A DNA stretch of 58,901 nucleotides, the filler included. It is 9 parts of 9 records of this genome, joined end to end, with 100 filler letters (N's around TTAATTAATTAA, not from the genome) between each part and the next. Parts side by side here need not be neighbours in the genome. Positions count along the whole stretch, not along the records: positions 7,179 to 13,135 come from SRR31147125_136450; 8 more parts are not named here. The stretch is one strand, 5' to 3'. Below are positions 7,674-29,564 of the stretch, in pieces. The stretch's first letter is position 1. Each line of letters begins with the position of its first letter. Below the pieces are notes generated by a model that was not told where the DNA came from, searched no databases, and saw only the letters and a program-made list of their open reading frames with translations. A program made the translations under genes and the position numbers.

Positions 7674-8095
7674 CGCATAATCAACTTGTAAAGACAGCGG
7701 TTGGCTGGCTTAGTATTTCCAAGGGCTGTAATCCTGCATTTGGAGAGAGAGGGAGTGCTAAGGTCAGAGAAATACCGGATGCAATTGGCTTTACTTCTGA
7801 TAAAAGTATTGTGGTTGAGTGCAAGGTGTCGAAATCTGATCTGTATGCGGACAGAAAGAAGCCGCACCGTACAGAGGGAGGGCTTGGAGATTATCGTTAT
7901 TATTTGCTGCCGCATGAATTGTACCTGGAGTGTGAGGATTTTGATTTTGCTGGATGGGGTGTGGTTACATGTGCGGAAAGCTTTGGGGTCAGGCAGGTAA
8001 GAGGTAGAGGGTCGGCTGAGTTTGAGAGCAATATTGAAGCGGAACGAGCTTTTCTGCGGTCGAGGATTCTGGAAATACAGAGGTTTGGAAAATGA
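7670..8095 (+). CDS. PD-(D/E)xK nuclease-like protein (MmcB-like)
   Basis: IPDAIGF...VVECKVSKSDLYAD motif and G-D-YRYYL. Confidence 0.65.
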   Translation: MTHNQLVKTAVGWLSISKGCNPAFGERGSAKVREIPDAIGFTSDKSIVVECKVSKSDLYADRKKPHRTEGGLGDYRYYLLPHELYLECEDFDFAGWGVVTCAESFGVRQVRGRGSAEFESNIEAERAFLRSRILEIQRFGK

Positions 8096-8574
8096 GTAAA
8101 GAAGTTTTAGATCCTTGTTGTGGGTCGAAGATGTTTTATTTTGATAAAGATAGGTCAGAGGTTTTATTTGCTGATCAGCGGAGTGAAGAGCATATCCTGT
8201 GTGATGGGAGAAAGTTGGAAATCAAACCAGATATACAGATTGATTTTCGGGATATGCCTTTTGAGGATGAATCTTTCAATCTGGTTATCTTTGATCCGCC
8301 GCATTTACATACTGCTGGCGAGAAGTCTTGGATGCGGAAGAAGTATGGGTGTCTGAGTAGAGAGACGTGGCGGGATGATCTTAGACAAGGTTTTGATGAG
8401 TGTTGGAGGGTCTTGGTTAAGGGTGGAACTTTGGTGTTCAAGTGGAATGAGACACAGATCAAGGTCGCAGAGATTCTGGCTTGTTTCTCGCAAGAACCAC
8501 TTGCAGGATGTCCTACGACACGGAATCTGAAAACGCATTGGCAGTTATTTTATAAAAAAGTAAATAAAGGATAA
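8092..8574 (+). CDS. Small phage SAM-dependent (amino-type DNA) methyltransferase
   Basis: LDPCCGSKMF SAM-binding motif, FDPPH catalytic-type motif, LVFKWNE. Confidence 0.85.
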   Translation: MSKEVLDPCCGSKMFYFDKDRSEVLFADQRSEEHILCDGRKLEIKPDIQIDFRDMPFEDESFNLVIFDPPHLHTAGEKSWMRKKYGCLSRETWRDDLRQGFDECWRVLVKGGTLVFKWNETQIKVAEILACFSQEPLAGCPTTRNLKTHWQLFYKKVNKG

Positions 8575-8578
8575 TGTA

Positions 8579-9829
8579 ATGGCAAAAATAGTAGAGTTAA
8601 AAGCAGAAAATGTGATGAGGCTTAATGTGGTGGAGATAACACCTGATGGAAGTCTTGTTGTGATTGGTGGGAATAATTCGCAGGGGAAGAGTTCTGTGCT
8701 CAATTCGATAATGTATGCGCTGGGAGGAGCAAAGACTATTCCTGAAAAAGCCTTGAGAGAAGGTGCAGAGCGTGGAGAGATAAGGATTGAACTGGATAGC
8801 GGTCTTATCATTACCCGTACATTCACTGCCAGTGGAAGGTCTTCAATCAAGGTAACAGGTAAAGACGGTGCTACATTCGGTTCACCACAGAAAATATTAG
8901 ACAGGATTACAGGATCACTCACCTTTGATCCGCTCAAGTTTACGCAACTCTCAGCAGGTGACCAGGCAATTCAGCTTCGGGAACTGGTCGGGGTTGACTT
9001 TGCAGAATACGATTCTATGCGTACTGAATATTATGCGGAACGGACTATTCTTAATCGTAAAGTTAAAGAGCTAGAGTCTATTGTAAATGCTGCTGATTTT
9101 CATGATGACCTGCCTGTTGAGGAGATTTCAGTTGCTGAGCTGGTAGTAGAGCATGATGCAATGATAGCAGCTAACGGGCTGAGAATGCTCGCACATAATG
9201 ATATTATGAGTATTGAAAGGCGGAAAGACTCTGTAACTCAGAAAATTAAAACTCTTGAGTGTGAATTAAGAGAGCTTAAAGAACAGAGGAAGGAACTTGG
9301 TAAGGTAATTCTGAGTGACAAAAAGAAATATAAAAATATGCCTGAATATTCAGAGTCTGAGATTGAGCAGATAACAGAGAAGTTATCCAATGCTGAGGAA
9401 ACAAACTCTCAAATCAGATCGAACCAGAAAATTATTGAGATTAAAGCACAGCTTTCAGAGACTCAGAATAGTGCTTCACAGATAACAGCAGCTATTAAAC
9501 ATATCGATAAGAAGAAGAAAGAGACTCTGGCAGCAGCAGATTTTCCAATTGAGGGATTGTCCTTTGATGAAAATACTGTTATTTATAATGACATACCGCT
9601 AAGTCAGGCAAGTTCAGCAGAGCAGCTCAGAGTATCAGTGGCGATAGGTATTGCCCTCAATCCAGAGCTCAAGGTTATTCTTATTCGTGATGGGTCGCTT
9701 CTTGATGAGGGCAATCTGCAGCTTATCAGGGATATGGCTACAGATAATGATATGCAGGTTTGGCTTGAGTGTGTTGGTAAAGGTGAGGAGTGCAGCGTGA
9801 TTATTGAGGATGGAAGGGTTGTGGCGTGA
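8579..9829 (+). CDS. SMC/Rad50/RecF-like ABC ATPase with coiled coil
   Basis: Walker A GNNSQGKSS, central coiled coil, signature-like ASSAEQ and Walker B-like ILIRDGSLLD. Confidence 0.85.
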   Translation: MAKIVELKAENVMRLNVVEITPDGSLVVIGGNNSQGKSSVLNSIMYALGGAKTIPEKALREGAERGEIRIELDSGLIITRTFTASGRSSIKVTGKDGATFGSPQKILDRITGSLTFDPLKFTQLSAGDQAIQLRELVGVDFAEYDSMRTEYYAERTILNRKVKELESIVNAADFHDDLPVEEISVAELVVEHDAMIAANGLRMLAHNDIMSIERRKDSVTQKIKTLECELRELKEQRKELGKVILSDKKKYKNMPEYSESEIEQITEKLSNAEETNSQIRSNQKIIEIKAQLSETQNSASQITAAIKHIDKKKKETLAAADFPIEGLSFDENTVIYNDIPLSQASSAEQLRVSVAIGIALNPELKVILIRDGSLLDEGNLQLIRDMATDNDMQVWLECVGKGEECSVIIEDGRVVA

Positions 9830-11094
9830 ATTGCTTTTCAGTCTGCTCCGGTATAGAAGCTGCAAGTGTGGCATGGCAGCCGCTGGGGTGGAAAGCTGTG
9901 GGGTTTGCAGAGATAGATAAGTTTCCGAGTGCGGTGTTGGCACATCATTATCCAGACGTGCCGAACTTCGGTGACTTCACTAAGGTGACCAAAGCCGATG
10001 TTGGAGATTTTGATTTGCTGGTTGGAGGGACTCCTTGTCAGGATTTCTCTATTGCCGGTAAGGGCGCAGGATGGGAAGGAGCGAGAGGGTCATTAACTTA
10101 TGAATATGTGCGATTACTGTCCAGAACAATGCCAGATTGGTTTGTTTGGGAAAATGTGCCGGGTGCAATACAAGGTGACAAGCGACTCGGATTTACTCGT
10201 TTTATCAGAAAACTTGGCGAACTCGGGTATGCTGTCGGATGGAGAGTGTTGGACGCACAGTATGTCAGAGTACCCGGATTTGAAAAAGCCGTCCCGCAAA
10301 GACGGAGACGTATCTTTCTTGTTGGGAATTCTTCAGCAGAACGTGTCAGAGAGGTACTCTTTAAGCCCGAAAGCAGGTGCTGGGATACTGAGGAGATCCG
10401 AAAAGAGAGGCAAGGAACTGCCGAAAATATTAGCCCTAGCACTACAGTCTACAGCAGAGAACAGTTCGGAGGATATGAAGAGGTAACAACAGGTGCATTT
10501 AGAACTTTATGCGCTAGGGATTATAGAGATCAAGGAGCTTCTGGTTTAGTCTGTGTTCATGGTTCTCAAGATCCTATAAGTAATTCAGAGACCGCAAATT
10601 GTATTGGTAGGAATCAGGGTCTTGAGGATGTTGTTGCAATTGCAGGGAATATTATCGGTAGACAGGCAAAGAATGGCGGTAATCATGATGGTTTCAGTGA
10701 GGATGGGGTGAGTTATACCCTGACTACAGCTGACAGGCATGCAGTGTGCTTTCAGCAGAACCAGAGGGATGAGGTCAGGCTTATTGGCGGTGACGGACAG
10801 ATTGCAGGTGCTATCGTTGCTGAAGCTGGAGTGAAGCAGCAGAATTATATCAAAGAGAAAACTATTGTCCGCAGGCTTACTCCAGTTGAGTGTGAGAGGT
10901 TGATGGGCTTTCCTGATGACTATACCTGTATTCCGTGGAATAAGAAACCAGCTGAGCGGTGTCCGGACAATCCGAGGTATAAGGCTCTTGGTAACAGTAT
11001 GGCGGTTAATTGTATGAGGTGGTTAGGAATGAGGATAGAGGAGGTGATAAAGAATGGTAGTTGTAAAACGGAGGAAGAATATGAGTGCAGTTGA
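9826..11094 (+). CDS. DNA (cytosine-5)-methyltransferase
   Basis: Motif I SVCSGI, IV GGTPCQDFS, VI WENVPG, VIII PQRRRRIF, IX RRLTPVECERLMGFP and X YKALGNSM. GTG start overlaps the upstream TGA. Confidence 0.95.
   Translation: MNCFSVCSGIEAASVAWQPLGWKAVGFAEIDKFPSAVLAHHYPDVPNFGDFTKVTKADVGDFDLLVGGTPCQDFSIAGKGAGWEGARGSLTYEYVRLLSRTMPDWFVWENVPGAIQGDKRLGFTRFIRKLGELGYAVGWRVLDAQYVRVPGFEKAVPQRRRRIFLVGNSSAERVREVLFKPESRCWDTEEIRKERQGTAENISPSTTVYSREQFGGYEEVTTGAFRTLCARDYRDQGASGLVCVHGSQDPISNSETANCIGRNQGLEDVVAIAGNIIGRQAKNGGNHDGFSEDGVSYTLTTADRHAVCFQQNQRDEVRLIGGDGQIAGAIVAEAGVKQQNYIKEKTIVRRLTPVECERLMGFPDDYTCIPWNKKPAERCPDNPRYKALGNSMAVNCMRWLGMRIEEVIKNGSCKTEEEYECS
10100..10486 (+). CDS. Nested +1-frame ORF resembling the beta polypeptide of M.EcoHK31I-type MTases
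   Basis: 128 codons entirely inside the MTase gene. ATG start with purine-rich GGAAGGAGCGAGAGGG upstream. Sequence NSGMLSDGECWT...YSLSPKAGAGILRRSEKRGKELP. Confidence 0.7.
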   Translation: MNMCDYCPEQCQIGLFGKMCRVQYKVTSDSDLLVLSENLANSGMLSDGECWTHSMSEYPDLKKPSRKDGDVSFLLGILQQNVSERYSLSPKAGAGILRRSEKRGKELPKILALALQSTAENSSEDMKR

Positions 11095-22000: not shown

Positions 22001-23503
22001 ATGAAAACTATTGAAACAGATATTATTGTTGTTGCTGGTGGTCTGTCTGGACTATCTGCTGCAGTCGCTGCTGCTGAAAATGGAGCAAATGTAGTTATAT
22101 TTGAAAAATCAAACACAACTGGTGGAGCTGCAAATATGGGAATGGGTCCATTAGGAATTGGGTCTTCAGTTCAAAGACATGAGATGATTACGCTTACTCC
22201 TGGTGAGGCATTTAGAAAGCACATGCACTTCACTCACTATAGAGTTGATGCTCGTTTAGTTCGTGATTACTACTTCAAGTCAGGTGACACAATTGATTGG
22301 TTAATCGATATGGGTGTTGAGTTTTGCGGAGCACATAAAGCATTTAGTGCTACAGAAGCTACTAGAGCATATGCTGACGGTGAAGCTACTTGGCATGTTG
22401 TAAAACCAGAGAGTGGAGGAGCTCCAGGCCCTAGAAGTGCAACAGCTATGACTAAAAAACTAACTGAAAAAGCAGTTGAGCTAGGTGCAGAGATTATGTA
22501 TGAAACACCTGTTCACAAAATCTTAGTAGAAGATGGCGCTGCAGTTGGAATTTTAGCTAAAAATAAAGATGGTGAAGAGATTGAAGCAAGAGGAAATTCA
22601 GTTATTATAGCTACTGGTGGATTTGGAGATAATCCAAAGATGATTAGTGACTTAACTGGATACGAATTCGAAAAAACAATATTTAACTTTGCAATTCCAG
22701 GAATGAAAGGTGACGGTCTTAGAATGGCATGGGAAGCTGGAGCTGGTAAAATTCAACCAACTATGGAACTAATGTACCAACTGCCTGATAATATGAACCA
22801 CTTTGTACTAGACGGAGCTTTCAGACAACCTTGTTTATGGGTAAATAAACTTGGTAATAGATTTATGCCTGAAGATCAAATTGCAAATAGTACATTTACA
22901 GGAAATGCTATTACAGCGCAACCTGGTTCTGTTGCATATGCAATTATGGACAGTAAAATACTTAAAAAATACAAAAAAAGAGGTCCAGATGTTATTTCGC
23001 ATGTACATCCTCATGATCTTTACGATCATTTTGATGAACAGTGGGAAAGAGATCTGGCTGAAGGCTATGAACCAATCGCTCAAGCTGATACTTTGGAAGA
23101 ATTAGCGGAAAAAATGGGAATTGATGTAGATGGTTTACTTAAACAAGTAGAAGAATATAACGAAATGTGTGACAGTGGATTTGATGAATTGTTCGAAAAA
23201 GACAGAAAATATATGGAGCCAATTGCAAAAGCACCATTCTACATCTGTAGACTTAATGTCGGAGCTTATGGTTCTCTTGGGGGAATCTCAATTAACTATA
23301 AAACTCAAGTTATGACTGATGATGATAAAGTAATACCAGGACTATATGCTGTTGGAACAGATGCGTGTAATATTTTTAGAGATAGCTATCCATTTATTTT
23401 ACCTGGAAACACTATGGGGTTCTGTCTAAATAGTGGTCGTATCGCTGGAGAAAACGCATCGGCTGAACTAAACAGCTATGATGATTTCGACGAATACGAA
23501 TAA
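22001..23503 (+). CDS. Cytoplasmic FAD-dependent oxidoreductase of the flavocytochrome c/fumarate reductase flavoprotein (FAD_binding_2) family
   Basis: N-terminal VVAGGLSG, IIATGGF, GDGLRMAW, WVNKLGNRF, IPGLYAVG, SGRIAG. No signal peptide; SD GGAGG. Confidence 0.9.
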   Translation: MKTIETDIIVVAGGLSGLSAAVAAAENGANVVIFEKSNTTGGAANMGMGPLGIGSSVQRHEMITLTPGEAFRKHMHFTHYRVDARLVRDYYFKSGDTIDWLIDMGVEFCGAHKAFSATEATRAYADGEATWHVVKPESGGAPGPRSATAMTKKLTEKAVELGAEIMYETPVHKILVEDGAAVGILAKNKDGEEIEARGNSVIIATGGFGDNPKMISDLTGYEFEKTIFNFAIPGMKGDGLRMAWEAGAGKIQPTMELMYQLPDNMNHFVLDGAFRQPCLWVNKLGNRFMPEDQIANSTFTGNAITAQPGSVAYAIMDSKILKKYKKRGPDVISHVHPHDLYDHFDEQWERDLAEGYEPIAQADTLEELAEKMGIDVDGLLKQVEEYNEMCDSGFDELFEKDRKYMEPIAKAPFYICRLNVGAYGSLGGISINYKTQVMTDDDKVIPGLYAVGTDACNIFRDSYPFILPGNTMGFCLNSGRIAGENASAELNSYDDFDEYE

Positions 23504-23540
23504 GAATTTATATTATTTAAAGGTAAATTAAGATATAAGT

Positions 23541-23575
23541 AATCGTAGGGGCACGCTAATCCCCTACGATTTTAT
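23541..23575 (+). terminator. Intergenic hairpin (terminator or REP-like stabilising stem)
   Basis: AATCGTAGGGG-N9-CCCCTACGATT, an 11-bp perfect stem followed by only a short T run. Confidence 0.55.
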
Positions 23576-23608
23576 GATATTGTATATTTTACAAGGTGGA
23601 GGAAAAGA

Positions 23609-25687
23609 ATGAAAATCAATATTGAAAATAAAGAGATAGAGGCAAAAAAGGGCGCAACTATCCTTGAAACAGCACTTGATGCTGGCATATATATACCTCA
23701 TCTATGCAAACATCCTGATTTAGAAGCTGTCGCCGGATGTAGATTATGCGTGGTAGAGATTGAAGGGAAAGAAACAGCAGTCCCATCATGTAAAACGCAA
23801 GTTGAAGATGGAATGAATATTAAGATTAATTCTGAACTAGCAACTGCAACTAGAAATATGGCTTTAGAATTAATTTTAGCTAGTCATCCCGCTGATTGTA
23901 CTGGGTGCCCAAAATATGGTAGTTGTGAACTTCAGTCAATTTATCAATATTTAGGAGTAAGTCCTGAAGGATGGAAAATGAAATCTAGATCTGTTCCTAA
24001 CGATACCAGTAGCGGCTTAATACATCACTCTTTCACTAGATGTATCAGATGCGGAAGGTGTATCAGAGCTTGTAGAGAACTTAGAGGAGTAAAAGTTTTA
24101 GATTTTCATAAAACTGAGGATGGAGTTAGAGTTGGAATCCCTGAAGGTATGACATTAGACGAAGCTGGATGTAGATTTTGCGGTGCTTGTACGGCAGTCT
24201 GTCCTACTGGTGCTATAACAGATGCACTAGTTGAAGAGGATAAATCATATGCTGATTCAGTAGTTCCGTGTAGAGCTGCATGTCCTGCACATACTGACGT
24301 TCCTAGATATGTTAGATATATCAAAGAGGGAGAGTTTGCCAAAGCAACAGCAGTTATTAGAGAGAAAGTTCCTTTTCCTGAGATATTAGGTAGCGTATGT
24401 GACCATATATGTGAATCTGAGTGTAAAAGAAATGAGTTTGAGAACCCAATCTCTATCTGTAAATTAAAAAAATCAGCTTCCTCTTATCATGATGAAACAT
24501 GGAAAACAAGAGCGAGAAAATCAGAAGCATCTGGTAAAAAAGTTGCTGTAGTTGGAGCAGGTCCAGCTGGAATGACTTCAGCTTATTTCCTAGCTAAAAA
24601 AGGACATGATGTAACAGTTTTTGAAGCTAATAAAAAAGCTGGTGGGCAATGTAGATATGGAATTCCTTCATATAGACTTCCTGATGATGTAGTTGATGGT
24701 GAGATTCTTGGAATCTTAGAAGAGGGAGTAAAATTAGTTACAGAAACTAAAATTGAAAATCCTAAAAATTTACTTGACGAACACGATGCAGTCCTTGTAT
24801 CAGTTGGTACTCATCAAGGGAATAAACTTCCATTAGATGGAGCAGACTTAGATGGGGTTACTCTAAACACAGATTTTCTTAAAGGCGTGAGAGAACACAC
24901 TATAACTAGTCTCAAAGAGAGAGTTATGGTTCTAGGTGGAGGAAATGTTGCGTATGATTGTGCCAGATCTGCTATACGTCTAGGAGCAAAAGAGGTGCAT
25001 ATAGCATGTCTTGAAAACCTTGAAACTATGACAGCTGCGAAAGAGGAAATTGAGGAAGGTAAAGAAGAGGGGGTTATCTTACATGATGCACACTCATTCT
25101 TAAAAATTGTAGGAGATACTAAAATTGAAGGTGTTGAGATTCAAAAAGTAAGTAAGTTTGAATTTGTTGACGGGAAAGCAAACATTGAACTTGTAGAAGG
25201 TTCTAATGAAGTTATCGCTGTGGACAAAGTTATCTTTGCTGTTGGGCAAAAACCCAAGGATACTGAGTGTATGGAGCTTGAGATGCACCACGGTAATTAC
25301 ATTCAGGCAAACGAATCAGCAGAAACAAGTGTCTCTGGAATATTTGCTGCTGGTGATGTTGTAACAGGTACAAAATCTGTTATCCAAGCTATTGAAGGCG
25401 GTAGACAGAGCGCTATGGCCATTGATAAATTCCTAGGTGGAGACGGAGATATCTCTGAAAACTTAGTTGATAAAGAGGAACTAAACCCTTACATTGGAAG
25501 AATAGAAGGTTTTGCTAAAAAAAATAGAGTTGAACTTGATCTCCTTGATGCAGAAGAGAGAAAAGCAAGTTTTGCTTGCGTAGAAAAAACACTTTCCAAA
25601 GAATCTGCAATGTGTGAAGCTGACAGATGTTTCCAGTGCGATTTAAGATTAGATATGAAAAACGTAAAACTATGGAACGATTTTTAA
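23609..25687 (+). CDS. Fe-S flavoprotein: NuoG/HydA-type N-terminal Fe-S relay fused to a GltD/NfnB-like FAD/NAD(P) module
   Basis: IPHLC...CRLCVVE (2Fe-2S), HxxxCxxCxxxxxC, two CxxCxxCxxxC motifs, PCRAACPAH, VGAGPAG, LGGGNVAYD, FAAGD, EADRCFQC. Confidence 0.9.
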   Translation: MKINIENKEIEAKKGATILETALDAGIYIPHLCKHPDLEAVAGCRLCVVEIEGKETAVPSCKTQVEDGMNIKINSELATATRNMALELILASHPADCTGCPKYGSCELQSIYQYLGVSPEGWKMKSRSVPNDTSSGLIHHSFTRCIRCGRCIRACRELRGVKVLDFHKTEDGVRVGIPEGMTLDEAGCRFCGACTAVCPTGAITDALVEEDKSYADSVVPCRAACPAHTDVPRYVRYIKEGEFAKATAVIREKVPFPEILGSVCDHICESECKRNEFENPISICKLKKSASSYHDETWKTRARKSEASGKKVAVVGAGPAGMTSAYFLAKKGHDVTVFEANKKAGGQCRYGIPSYRLPDDVVDGEILGILEEGVKLVTETKIENPKNLLDEHDAVLVSVGTHQGNKLPLDGADLDGVTLNTDFLKGVREHTITSLKERVMVLGGGNVAYDCARSAIRLGAKEVHIACLENLETMTAAKEEIEEGKEEGVILHDAHSFLKIVGDTKIEGVEIQKVSKFEFVDGKANIELVEGSNEVIAVDKVIFAVGQKPKDTECMELEMHHGNYIQANESAETSVSGIFAAGDVVTGTKSVIQAIEGGRQSAMAIDKFLGGDGDISENLVDKEELNPYIGRIEGFAKKNRVELDLLDAEERKASFACVEKTLSKESAMCEADRCFQCDLRLDMKNVKLWNDF

Positions 25688-25769
25688 AAAAACATTGATT
25701 TTGGATACTTTTCGGTCACCCTGTTTTAAGTTTATATTATAGCATGAGAAATTTTGAAAGGATAAAATA

Positions 25770-26618
25770 ATGAGTGAATTATTAATATGTAATGCAATAC
25801 CAACATACAAAACTGCACCAGTATCGCTTGATATTTTGAAAAATACCACCTCTGAAATTCTAGAGTCAATTTATTCAAAAAAGGCAGAAAAAAACTATAT
25901 TATTTTAGAAAAAGATCAAAGCGAAATAGAAGAGATAATAACAAAAGAACTTGGAAATTTCAAAGAGCTTACACTTGAAATTAAGGAAGCTGATGACAAT
26001 GTTGCTTTTGTTTATTTAAATGAAAGTGCAGCGGTAAAAATATTGGAAGGAGAAAAACCTATTCCATTATCAAAGGATGATAACAATATCCTATTTACTG
26101 TTGAACAATTATTAAATAAAGAAGTAAAAACAGTCTATGTTGAAGGTAAAATCAAGAAAAGCGGCAAACATGTTTTCTCTAAAAAACTTACACCGAAGGA
26201 AATTATTGAAACGTGTGGAGCTGATGGAGAAGTCAAAGGTATTTTTCTGGGCTTCCCAGAAGGAAGATTTATAGGACAAGATAAATTCGATGAAGTTATT
26301 GAACTTAAAAGTGATCTGATTAGAGTTTTCAATGAAAAGAATTGTATGCTTACTGAGCTTAATAAAACTGCTCAAGAGTTTATAAAAGAGAGTTGTGGAA
26401 GATGTGTATTTGGATTTGAAGGTGTTACTCAAATCAATAGAATCTTAGCTGATATTATTAGAAAAAAAGGTAAAATAACAGATATCTCAAAACTGCAAAA
26501 TTTATGCAATCAAATGAGACATCAAACAGTATGTAATGTGGATCCTGTTCTTGCAACCGTAGTTGAAACTGCGCTTGAAAATTTTCATGATGAGATCACA
26601 GAGCATATCACAAAAAAA
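25770..26618 (+). CDS. Degenerate NuoF/HydB-like subunit (SLBB plus C-terminal Fe-S region), 3' truncated
   Basis: NESAAVKILEGEKPIP, VYVEGKIKKSG and KESCGRCVFGFEG...TVC. The Gly-rich NADH/FMN loop is absent. Confidence 0.75.
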
Positions 26619-26718
26619 NNNNNNNNNNNNNNNNNNNNNNNNNNNNNNNNNNNNNNNNNNNNTTAATTAATTAANNNNNNNNNNNNNNNNNNNNNNNNNN
26701 NNNNNNNNNNNNNNNNNN
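26619..26718. other. Artificial contig linker
   Basis: Same 100-nt linker. Confidence 0.99.
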
Positions 26719-28256
26719 AAAACCCGACCATTCGGAGGAGATCGCCCGGGTCAGGGAAAACGGCCTTGTGGAATCCTGCGATGTGGTCATTATCGGCGGC
26801 GGGATCTCCGGCTGTGCCGTGGCGAGGGCCCTCAGCCAATACAACCTGGATGTTGTGGTGGCGGAGAAGAACAGCGACATATCCGAGGAAGCGACCAAAG
26901 CCAACAACGGGAACATCCATCCGGGGCTGATGGCCAAACCGGGAACCCTGAAGGCGGAATTGAACCTGATCGGCAACAGGATGTACACCCGGCTGTCCGA
27001 GGATCTGGGTTTCGAACTGAAAAGACCCGGATCTCTGGTGGTCTTCTACAGTCAGAAGGAGTGGAGAATCGCGAAACTTCTGAAGTTCCTCAAGGTAACG
27101 GGACTGGGCCATCTGATCAAACCCCTAAGGCAGTTTATGAAAGTCCCGGGCCTGAAATGGCTGAAGGGCGAAGAAGTAAACAAGCTGGAACCGAATCTGA
27201 AGGGCACCCCCATCGGGGGCTTTCACATGACCACCATGGGGATCGTCGAGCCCTATGAAGTGTGCATGGCCTTTGCGGAAAACGCCGCCGCCAACGGCGT
27301 CCGGTTCAAGCTGGACACCAAGGTTCTGGACATCGTCAGGGACGGAGACCGGGTGACAGAAGTCATCACGAACCGGTCCGCCATAAAGTGCTCCTATGTC
27401 ATCAACTGCGCCGGCGTGTATGCGGATGAGATAGCCGGAATGGTGAACGACCGGTTCTATACCATTCATCCCCGGCGCGGCGCCATCGCCATCTTCGACA
27501 AAAGCCGCAAGGGATTCTTGAACACTCCGGCGGGCGTGATCAGCGGTTCCGACAGGACCAACAATACCAAGGGGGAGGCGCCAGCGTGACCCCCGAGGGG
27601 AATATGCTGTGGGGACCGACGGCCACGGAAACGCCCTTCAAGGAGGAGAAAACCGTCGAGCGGTCGGACCTGCAGTACATCATGAACCTGGGCAGCGGCA
27701 TCACCGACGAGATCAAGCAGAATGAGATCATCACCTTCTTCTCGGGAATCCGGGCGGCCGACTACAAGGAGGATTTCATCATCGAAGCCTCCGAAAAGGT
27801 CCGCGGATTCATTCATGTGGCGGGATCCAGTCCCCCGGACTGGCATCGGCGCCGGCCATCGCCCAGCGGGTCGAAAAGATCCTGCTGAGTATGGACGGGA
27901 GTATCGGAAAGAAAGCCGATTTCATCGGCACCAGAAAACCGGCCGTGTCCTTCCGGGACCTGAGCCATGAAGAGCAGGATGAGCTGATCCGGAAAAACCC
28001 GAAGTACGGCAATATCGTCTGCCGGTGTGAACTGATCACCGAGGGCGAGATCATCGATGCGGTTCACGCCCCCATTCCGGCCACCACGGTGGACGGCGTG
28101 AAACGGCGGACCAGGGCCGGCATGGGACGCTGCCAGGGAGGATTCTGCGGCCCCCGGGTTCTTGAGATCATCGCCCGGGAACTGGAAAAACCCCTGACCG
28201 GGATATCCATGAAAGGCTCGGATTCGTATGTACTGCACAGAGACAACCGCGGGTAG
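26719..28256 (+). CDS. FAD-dependent glycerol-3-phosphate dehydrogenase/L-2-hydroxyglutarate oxidase-like protein with C-terminal BFD-like 2Fe-2S domain; 5' truncated; two frameshifts
   Basis: IIGGGISG, ATKANNGNIHPG, INCAGVYAD, CRCE...RAGMGRCQGGFC. One extra G at 27571-27575 and at 27822-27824 restores KGGGASVTPEGN and GIQSPGLASAPAIA. Confidence 0.85.
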
Positions 28257-28265
28257 AAAAGGAAT

Positions 28266-29564
28266 ATGAATGTGAAAAACAGGCAGATGGATTTAGTGGT
28301 AATAGGCGGTGGTCCCGCGGGACTGGCCGCAGCTATTGAAGCCAGACGGCAGGGAATAGAAAAAATACTGATCATCGAGAGGGACAACACCCTGGGCGGC
28401 ATACTGCAGCAGTGCATCCACGACGGATTCGGACTGCACCGGTTCGGTAAGAGGCTGTCTGGCTGCGAATATGCGGACAACTTCATTGTCGAAGCGGAAG
28501 AAGCGAACATCGAAGTCGCCTACGAGACCATTGTCCTTGAGATTACCGGGGATAAAACCGTCTACGCCATGAACTCCCGGGAAGGGATCGTGGAATACCG
28601 GTGCCGGACCATCATCCTGGCCATGGGTTGCCGGGAACGGACCCGGGCCCAGGCCTTTATCTGGGGAACCAGGCCCAGCGGCGTATTAACGGCGGGTACG
28701 GTTCAGAGGTACATCAATATCGAAGGCTACCTGCCGGGGAAGAAAGCGGTCATTCTGGGGTCCGGCGATATCGGTCTGATCATGGCGCGTCGGATGACCC
28801 TGGAAGGCATCTCCGTCGAAGGGGTCTATGAACTGATGGAGTCCCCCGGCGGACTGACCCGGAATATCGCCCAGTGCCTGAACGATTACGACATCCCCAT
28901 GCACCTGGCCACAACGGTGGTCCGGATTCACGGACAGAAGAAAATCGAAGGGGTCACAGTCGCCAAAGTGGATTCCGACAGGAATGTGATCGAAGGTACC
29001 GAGCGCTACATCGAATGCGACCTGCTGGTCCTGGCGGTGGGCCTGATACCGGAGAACGAACTGACCCGGCAGCTGGAGATAGAGATAGACCCGAAAACAA
29101 AAGGCCCGGCGGTGGATGAAAACTTCATGACCTCCATGGAAGGGGTATTTGCGGCGGGCAATGTGGTGACCGTCTTCGACCTGGTGGATTATGTGTCCCT
29201 GACCGGAGAGATCGCGGGCCGGGGAGCGGCCAGGTATATCCGGGGAGAACTGGACCTCGATCAGGAACCGACACTCCTCACCCCCGGAGAGAATGTCTCC
29301 TTTGTGGTCCCCCAGCGGATCCGGACGGAGAACCTCGAATCGGAACTGCCCATCTACTTCCGGGTGACAGGCAGAAAAGAGAAGGTGGAAGTCGTAGCGG
29401 CAATGGAAGATGAGGTCTGCTACAGAAAAAAGCATCGAGTGGTGCTGCCCCCGGAGATGCTGGTGGAAACCATTGACGGCAAGGCGATTCGGGAAAACTC
29501 TGCCGGGAGTCACGGGGCGGGGAAAAAGGGTTTGAAAGTCAATGTAACGGGAAGATCATTATGA
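28266..29564 (+). CDS. NAD(P)/FAD-dependent pyridine nucleotide-disulfide oxidoreductase (partner of the GlpA-like enzyme)
   Basis: GGGPAG, GGILQQCIHDGFG, AMGCRER, GSGDIGLIMARR. Confidence 0.9.
   Translation: MNVKNRQMDLVVIGGGPAGLAAAIEARRQGIEKILIIERDNTLGGILQQCIHDGFGLHRFGKRLSGCEYADNFIVEAEEANIEVAYETIVLEITGDKTVYAMNSREGIVEYRCRTIILAMGCRERTRAQAFIWGTRPSGVLTAGTVQRYINIEGYLPGKKAVILGSGDIGLIMARRMTLEGISVEGVYELMESPGGLTRNIAQCLNDYDIPMHLATTVVRIHGQKKIEGVTVAKVDSDRNVIEGTERYIECDLLVLAVGLIPENELTRQLEIEIDPKTKGPAVDENFMTSMEGVFAAGNVVTVFDLVDYVSLTGEIAGRGAARYIRGELDLDQEPTLLTPGENVSFVVPQRIRTENLESELPIYFRVTGRKEKVEVVAAMEDEVCYRKKHRVVLPPEMLVETIDGKAIRENSAGSHGAGKKGLKVNVTGRSL

Follow-up and report, generated by a model that had tools for sequence, protein, structure and literature searches.

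An overlapping gene in the +1 frame of a phage C5 DNA methyltransferase gene and its relationship to the beta polypeptide of M.EcoHK31I

Introduction

The C5 DNA cytosine methyltransferase (MTase) M.EcoHK31I was reportedly described by Lee, Kam and Shaw in 1995 as an alpha/beta enzyme whose beta polypeptide is encoded in another frame inside the alpha gene. Its isoschizomer M.EaeI likewise possesses a nested beta, and the nested-beta principle has been known since 1995 from these two enzymes. A different arrangement is found in M.AquI, a split C5-MTase encoded by consecutive, non-overlapping genes, in which alpha carries motifs I-VIII and beta carries motifs IX and X; we know of no nested domain in AquI-type enzymes. 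In this work we analyze a stretch of DNA of 58,901 nucleotides, filler included (hereinafter, the window), in which a C5-MTase gene embeds a second open reading frame (ORF), shifted by one nucleotide and wholly contained in it.

The nested subunit of M.EcoHK31I has been characterized experimentally. As stated in the available portions of PMC2836561, through which the results of Fung et al. 2006 are also quoted here, beta is encoded entirely in an alternative frame of alpha; alpha comprises motifs I-VIII, the target recognition domain (TRD), and motif X, and beta provides motif IX. According to the same portions of text, beta is a separate translation product with a start of its own as well as internal starts, the silent removal of its ATGs abolishes activity, and beta is a purified, active polypeptide and an essential subunit (PMC2836561). 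N-terminal deletions of beta from about 37 to 50 residues make the association with alpha progressively weaker (dissociation constant, Kd, from 2.4 to 7.1 uM), and, in a zinc-finger-tethered format, activity falls when the deletion is extended from 69 to 70 residues (PMC2836561).

More generally, viral genes may be overprinted, that is, an older gene may come to encode a second protein in one of its alternative frames, synonymous change being reduced where the two overlap (PMC8227390). The examples in the available text of that work come mostly from eukaryotic viruses and from phiX174, with no DNA-methyltransferase case among them, whereas the product encoded in the window apparently serves the very enzyme that its gene overlaps.

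Results and Discussion

A second coding frame inside the methyltransferase gene

The two genes under study are the following:

9826..11094, + strand: host gene, an alpha-like C5 DNA cytosine methyltransferase of 422 aa (ORF call, PF00145, phrog_116, TIGR00675 dcm, alignment)
10100..10486, + strand: nested gene with an ATG start, 128 codons plus a stop, a short form of a beta-like family (ORF call, conservation, shuffle control, pairing with its closest relative)

A preliminary description of this DNA had claimed a 128-codon, ATG-initiated ORF in the +1 frame, lying wholly inside the MTase gene and over motifs VI-VIII. Both points are confirmed: the nested ORF is in the +1 frame of the host because (10100-9826) mod 3 = 1, and it overlies main-frame residues 92-221, which include ENV (motif VI) and QRRRR (motif VIII) and run about 50 residues further. 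The data presented below show a second protein-coding frame under purifying selection at 10100-10486: the nested ORF is conserved as a protein in every homologue examined, it constrains the synonymous sites of its host, and it occupies the same frame and position as beta. On the whole, we take 10100-10486 to be a real, selected overlapping gene, homologous to the N-terminal two-thirds of beta, and we consider it reasonably probable that its product binds the complete MTase as a small accessory subunit.

The host gene matches PF00145 (E 1.8e-50), phrog_116 (E 4.2e-86), and TIGR00675 (dcm). Motifs I-X are all in a single frame, motif I being atypical (CSGIEA), and the motifs that mark the C5-MTases, namely I, IV (PCQ), VI (ENV), VIII (QxRxR), IX, and X, are thus found on a single polypeptide.

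Conservation of the +1 frame among homologous loci

Homologous loci were gathered by main-frame MTase similarity only, in order to avoid selecting on the nested frame. Forty-six viral contigs were collected, 42 of which cover the region; a +1-frame tblastn match was obtained in 41 of these, and in the remaining one (L011) the ORF was seen on translation, with the same +1 offset. Among the bacterial genome contigs (18 collected, 16 covering the region), the +1 ORF was present in 16 out of 16. Hence, all 58 covering loci possess the +1 ORF, the offset being +1 in all 57 tblastn matches, and the depletion of +1-frame stops in homologues, which had been put forward as a check, is complete (frame open in 58/58). 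The main-frame identity of these loci to the window is 35-64%, with the best local segments reaching 73%; the G+C content of the host genes spans 40-69%, and the +1 frame is stop-free in all the homologues. An initial tblastn search with the 128-aa peptide had matched 126 phage records, from phages with very different hosts; in the three that were opened (Caulobacter phage DMCA, Streptococcus phage Javan261, and mycobacteriophage Omega), the match fell each time in the +1 frame of an annotated methyltransferase. Since some loci are duplicated, the 45 sequences (the window and the three phage records included) were reduced to 38 distinct peptides.

An open frame inside a conserved gene might be a by-product of the host protein, and controls were set up at this level. 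When the synonymous codons of the host were resampled, the +1 frame of the window remained stop-free in only 2.1% of 2000 replicates, about three internal stops being expected. The +1 peptide of the window scored 127.8 bits against a leave-one-out family profile, versus maxima of 93.2 bits for 300 permuted and 77.8 bits for 300 resampled sequences (z = 6.2 and 8.0). The real peptide exceeded all 600 synonymous shuffles in each of the seven sequences tested, with z ranging from 6 to 14; the shuffles themselves average 38-89 bits, indicating that the conserved host protein forces some similarity in the +1 frame.

The synonymous sites of the host tell the same story. The entropy of third bases at conserved four-fold degenerate sites is 1.08 bits in the overlap (66 columns) versus 1.65 bits outside it (49 columns; Mann-Whitney p 9e-10), so that the reduced synonymous variation anticipated for this interval is indeed observed, and the entropy approaches zero under the block SLSDILE...KRGKxLP. 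Over the 36 codons ending with KRGKxLP, identity is 0.69 in the nested frame versus 0.50 in the host frame (528 pairs). The locus, therefore, combines an open frame, an excess of peptide conservation, and a synonymous constraint confined to the overlap, which are the features of a functional dual-coding gene.

Third-position constraint, taken alone, would fit selection acting at the RNA level as well as at the protein level, and one might ask whether the conservation reflects DNA or RNA structure or binding sites, without any protein. We find this idea hardly credible: the +1 frame is stop-free in all homologues across 40-69% G+C, whereas the +2 frame, which served as a negative control, contains 8-9 stops, and the three antisense frames over the overlap are fully open in only 2, 7, and 2 of the 38 sequences; moreover, substitutions preserve amino-acid motifs, and beta, in the accessible text of PMC2836561, is a purified and active polypeptide. 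One antisense ORF (10098-10442, - strand, 114 aa) was also considered as a gene in its own right; it has no family, its frame is fully open in 2/38 homologues, and it is likely due to chance.

Start of the nested ORF and its short form

Two features precede the nested ATG:

10073..10089, + strand: purine-rich Shine-Dalgarno (SD)-like tract gggaaggagcgagaggg, ending 10 nt 5' of ATG 10100 (best anti-SD duplex -6.3 kcal/mol)
9998..10096, + strand: +1-frame leader ORF of 32 codons (MLEIL...EGH*), seen on +1 translation, with its ATG (9998) near the usual start of the family

The purine-rich tract mentioned in the preliminary description is, therefore, present. Most members of the family have 160-180 aa and start with M-Q-L-S/T-x-F over motif IV, after an AAGGA/AGGAG-like motif; such a motif precedes the first in-frame ATG in most of the 38 distinct sequences. 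The window harbors a short form, in which a stop and a restart occur where the long forms read through: the leader ORF is closed by TAA at 10094-10096, one codon before the nested ATG. This leader is probably what remains of the N-terminus of the long form, and the closeness of its stop to the nested ATG makes a coupling by termination and reinitiation possible.

The closest relative is L051, from a Planctomycetota metagenome-assembled genome, whose MTase shares 64% identity with ours. Its +1 ORF consists of 127 codons, has the same M[NS]MCDYC start and a tract equivalent to the SD-like tract of the window, and is preceded by a stop (TGA) at the codon that holds the upstream stop of the window ORF. 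Identity between the two +1 peptides is 59%, against a mean of 28% and a maximum of 40% under synonymous resampling (2000 replicates). At the nucleotide level, the identity at host codon positions 1/2/3 is 0.65/0.74/0.71 in the overlap versus 0.78/0.88/0.44 just upstream.

This pair bears on the possibility that the nested ORF of the window is a decaying, N-terminally truncated, and non-functional relic, an idea suggested by the stop at 10094-10096 and by the change of five of the eight positions of the family motif CSLSDILE, with the loss of a conserved cysteine. We regard decay as very unlikely because L051 keeps the same short architecture, with 59% identity in the +1 frame and third-position constraint. 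Moreover, the active beta and the Streptococcus phage Javan261 ORF start at nearly the same place, beta too is devoid of the KAC cysteine, and no internal stop interrupts the window ORF, in spite of the roughly three expected.

The same region is informative on the mode of expression. The +1 sequence might be expressed by programmed +1 frameshifting or slippage, yielding an MTase N-terminus (motifs I-V) fused to the nested C-terminal part; a database protein of 295 aa (P0203), which has MTase motifs I-IV and then continues in the nested frame like a frameshift fusion, could be read in this way. Yet P0203 may be the result of an assembly indel, in most members the frame begins at a conserved ATG accompanied by an SD-like motif, a +1 stop lies one codon before the ATG in both the window and L051, and no conserved slippery site was noticed. 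Beta, in turn, is made from its own start, and its activity is abolished by the silent removal of its ATGs, according to the part of PMC2836561 dealing with these mutants. Expression by frameshift appears, in our opinion, highly improbable.

Comparison with the beta polypeptide of M.EcoHK31I

The comparison with beta involves these segments:

10223..10252, + strand: nested residues 42-51, NSGMLSDGECW, aligned with beta residues 40-50, which fall in the 38-50 stretch where deletions loosen the alpha-beta association (alignments)
10313..10336, + strand: nested residues 72-79, SFLLGILQ, which diverges from the corresponding family motif CSLSDILE (CTLSQVLE in beta)
10352..10423, + strand: nested residues 85-108, RYSLSPKAGAGILRRSEKRGKELP, where conservation within the family is highest (invariant columns), a basic helical hairpin in the structural model
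10870..10923, + strand: main-frame motif IX (RRLTPVECERLMGFPDDY), here part of the host frame, whereas in M.EcoHK31I it is on beta
10978..11037, + strand: main-frame motif X (YKALGNSMAVNCMRWLG..., GNSMAV; main-frame translation, alignment)

The M.EcoHK31I locus was retrieved by using a 31-base primer from the supplement of PMC2836561 as a query, which gave an exact match in 80 of 5,426 complete E. coli genomes. In the one record whose annotation was inspected (L050, NZ_CP024886.1), a 309-aa "DNA cytosine methyltransferase" (CDS, coding sequence, 2014-2943) adjoins a convergent NotI-family endonuclease; the ends of this alpha gene agree with the primers of PMC2836561, and beta corresponds to a 176-aa +1 ORF (2324-2854) that was left unannotated. 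Its N-terminal layout is ...IRWSNSGMAFRGEYW...ECTLSQVLET...LINRAKERGQMLPEPLLQA..., and its C-terminal part contains the canonical motif IX YVRRMLPSEYERLQGFPENW; the alpha frame has no motif IX and resumes with motif X. An alternative-frame beta supplying motif IX, as cited in the preliminary description, is, thus, both stated in the available text of PMC2836561 and visible at this locus, where the beta motifs given in that description (NSGM, GE.W, L..VLE, and L..RA.ERG...P) are also found in the +1 frame.

The proposed likeness to beta withstood alignment. The profile of the nested family matches beta residues 4-111 with 72.4 bits, and BLASTP aligns the window peptide with beta over 103 collinear residues (E 7e-7, 27% identity); the homology of the host frames in itself accounts for some of this similarity, and the family-level shuffle control shows an excess over it. 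The alpha of M.EcoHK31I and the window MTase are themselves related (E 3e-37). The register coincides too: NSGM lies 40 residues from the nested start in the window and 39 in beta, and at both loci NSGM overlies EFGY and EHPSVEEEC overlies PQRRRR. The idea that a divergent motif IX resides in the block LS.KAC.GILRRA was also entertained and then rejected, for beta has ESFLNPEQLESLINRA there and a separate canonical motif IX downstream.

The two systems, therefore, share the enzyme family, the +1 frame over motifs VI-VIII, and a start of their own about 40 residues before NSGM. They differ in that beta (176 aa) bears motif IX and its alpha (309 aa) does not, whereas the window ORF (128 aa) has no motif IX and ends at 10486, leaving motifs IX and X in the main frame, exactly as had been noted at the outset. 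In addition, M.EcoHK31I has a NotI-family endonuclease beside it, whereas the neighborhood of the window gene is phage-like and includes another MTase; and the requirement for beta was shown by experiment, whereas the window pair is known from sequence.

Size, annotation, and architectures of the nested family

A profile built on 29 nested peptides retrieved 5,935 representatives at E <=0.001 (4,528 at 1e-10) among 1.84 billion proteins, and, in a database clustered at 90% identity, 5,367 clusters of 62-340 aa. In the best 120 of the 5,367 clusters, the named ones are "hypothetical proteins", nearly all without a Pfam domain, and the nearest clusters in the ESM Atlas are viral "hypothetical proteins". 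No model of Pfam or NCBIfam matches the nested peptide, and phrog_16143 gives a weak match (E 0.004). A hit to cytochrome c-550 among PDB sequences (E 0.12) was discarded as due to chance.

The nested domain is also carried by the dmt genes of phages P1 and P7. In the phage records among the matches listed, the nested match is covered by either a methyltransferase or a single "hypothetical protein" annotation. The prediction that gene callers would miss the nested gene holds for the most part: no separate gene is annotated in these phage records, nor in L050; on the other hand, gene callers have picked up thousands of copies as hypothetical proteins, often on contigs shorter than 2 kb.

As far as architecture is concerned, a complete alpha plus a short nested ORF is the usual condition, found in most of the 58 loci. 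This distribution fits the proposal of a stand-alone accessory subunit in a state related to the origin of split enzymes. In a second, "beta-long" form, the nested domain is followed in its own frame by the TRD and motifs IX and X, and the main frame ends shortly past motif VIII:

Database proteins (ten): P0013, P0091, P0120, P0185, P0190, P0206, P0242, P0260, P0264, P0269
Loci: L036, 300-1421; L059, 1155-1889

Judging from its sequence, the beta-long form would be an overlapping split methyltransferase. It recalls M.AquI in that relatives such as P0120, P0242, and L036 place the TRD and motifs IX and X on a second polypeptide; M.AquI differs in that its subunit genes show no alternative-frame overlap, and the enzyme of the window is not split at all. 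At four further loci (L004, L039, L058, and L066), the C-terminal half of the MTase (motifs IX-X) is in the +1 frame, with stops between it and the nested ORF; these may be three-piece enzymes, pseudogenes, or sequencing frameshifts. Some of the odd architectures could be assembly indels; their recurrence in divergent clusters is worth noting.

In mycobacteriophage Omega (L003, 1080-2384), the MTase is annotated as gp127 plus gp128, split by an in-frame stop. A typical conserved MTase stretch is found in the +2 frame at their junction, and the nested +1 ORF is intact.

Is the nested product a methyltransferase subunit?

The assignment of the nested product as a subunit that binds the MTase rests on the deletion data for beta and on the natural fusions. 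We infer binding because the deletions in beta that raise the Kd (residues 38-50) or abolish activity even in the tethered format (residues 66-70) fall in the motifs common to beta and the nested family, namely, in L050 numbering, WSNSGMAFRGEYW and LSQVL. Two further reasons are that the domain recurs fused to parts of the MTase and that no copy was found outside an MTase gene among the 58 loci, which were themselves collected by MTase similarity.

The structural model of the nested peptide is also compatible with this idea. Helices are predicted at residues 90-103 and 109-127, with predicted local distance difference test scores (pLDDT) above 90 in the conserved block; disorder is predicted up to about residue 70, and most of the model lies under pLDDT 60. 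A disordered N-terminus followed by a confident basic hairpin from about residue 88 fits a chain that would fold on a partner and perhaps touch DNA. The host frame beneath residues 85-108 is poorly conserved. The fold computed for P0242, a natural beta-long fusion, was uninformative (11-row alignment, mean pLDDT 41).

Several observations weigh against the subunit reading. Every canonical motif is present in the host enzyme, which leaves no obvious gap for a partner to fill; the window ORF is devoid of the N-terminal part of the long form (about 45 residues) and departs from the family at strongly conserved sites (SFLLGILQ for CSLSDILE, KAG for KAC); the 10-nt spacing between the SD-like tract and ATG 10100 is long. 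The peptide modeled alone has a mean pLDDT of 61.7 and is confident only at about residues 88-120, and the profile search of PDB sequences returned no relative of solved structure. Lastly, for the window as for all the members with a complete alpha, the case for translation and MTase binding is an indirect one.

Alternatively, the nested protein might be real and yet act as something other than an enzyme subunit, for example by regulating the expression or timing of the MTase, by binding DNA, or by counteracting defence. This would sit well with the completeness of the host MTase, with the match to no known family, and with the fact that the best-conserved part is, in the model, a basic helical hairpin that might contact nucleic acid without a partner; one database protein (P0211, 546 aa) also joins the nested domain to about 400 unrelated residues. 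Nevertheless, the sole characterized homologue, beta, is an essential MTase subunit, as reported in the accessible part of PMC2836561, and the binding of alpha becomes weaker when the motifs that the family shares with beta are deleted; the domain is joined to the C-terminal half of the MTase in ten proteins and at two loci, and none of the 58 loci has a copy outside the MTase gene. We therefore consider a role unrelated to the enzyme complex rather unlikely, and we retain the accessory subunit as the preferred interpretation.

Genomic neighborhood of the methyltransferase gene

The surroundings of the window C5-MTase form a phage-like gene block. A second DNA methyltransferase lies upstream of it at 8092-8574 (phrog_954, E 1.8e-77), and directly 5' of it, at 8579-9829, there is a 416-aa phrog_1499 protein, a family with a function-less label; the stop of the latter overlaps the GTG start codon of the C5-MTase (GTGA). 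No endonuclease family was matched among the eight neighboring ORFs scanned, some small ones of which had no match at all. In Streptococcus phage Javan261, an adenine MTase likewise lies just 5' of the C5-MTase. No close DNA relative was found among phage records, which gave three short matches only.

Elsewhere in the window, at 22001-29564, there are three ORFs of 500, 692, and 432 aa whose matches, all to phrog_6397 (ribonucleotide reductase large subunit), are weak or partial. The window also contains very long minus-strand ORFs (1,748, 1,498, and 722 aa), with no PHROG match.

A possible scenario for function and evolution

On the accessory-subunit interpretation, the nested product would be translated from its own start in the MTase mRNA, through the SD-like tract and ATG 10100, as beta is. 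Its N-terminal half, predicted to be disordered when alone, might fold onto the catalytic domain through the NSGM...ECW segment, and its basic C-terminal helical hairpin (GILRRSEKRGKELP) might help DNA binding or enzyme stability. M.EcoHK31I would then be derived: two frame changes would have transferred motif IX to a partner that already existed, so that the alpha/beta pair became obligatory.

A broader extension of this scenario, which we put forward tentatively and regard as somewhat less probable than its opposite, is that the whole clade of phage and prophage "orphan Dcm" enzymes, P1 Dmt included, consists of two-protein enzymes with a subunit overprinted on motifs IV-VIII. This subunit would later have received migrated pieces (motif IX in M.EcoHK31I; the TRD and motifs IX and X in the beta-long forms), giving rise to split methyltransferases; such pieces could migrate onto it because, in this proposal, it already bound the enzyme.

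Conclusions

The literature search carried out for nested ORFs in phage C5-MTases, which covered few subscription journals and not REBASE, returned only papers on M.EcoHK31I and others on unrelated subjects. To that extent, what appears to be new is the existence of a homologous nested gene accompanying complete MTases across a very large phage and prophage clade.

The phage C5-MTases of this clade are treated as single-chain orphan enzymes in annotation, cloning, and discussion. Should they possess a hidden obligatory or modulating subunit, codon-optimized or recoded constructs would silently destroy it, assignments of activity and specificity could be wrong, and models of anti-restriction would miss a component. 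In that case, moreover, a family of at least 5,935 representatives, without a model in Pfam or NCBIfam, would gain a name and a testable function. The locus also offers a rare and well-supported bacteriophage case of a long, same-strand overlapping gene with selection in two frames, and an overprinted partner of this kind would provide a concrete and datable route to a split enzyme such as M.EcoHK31I.

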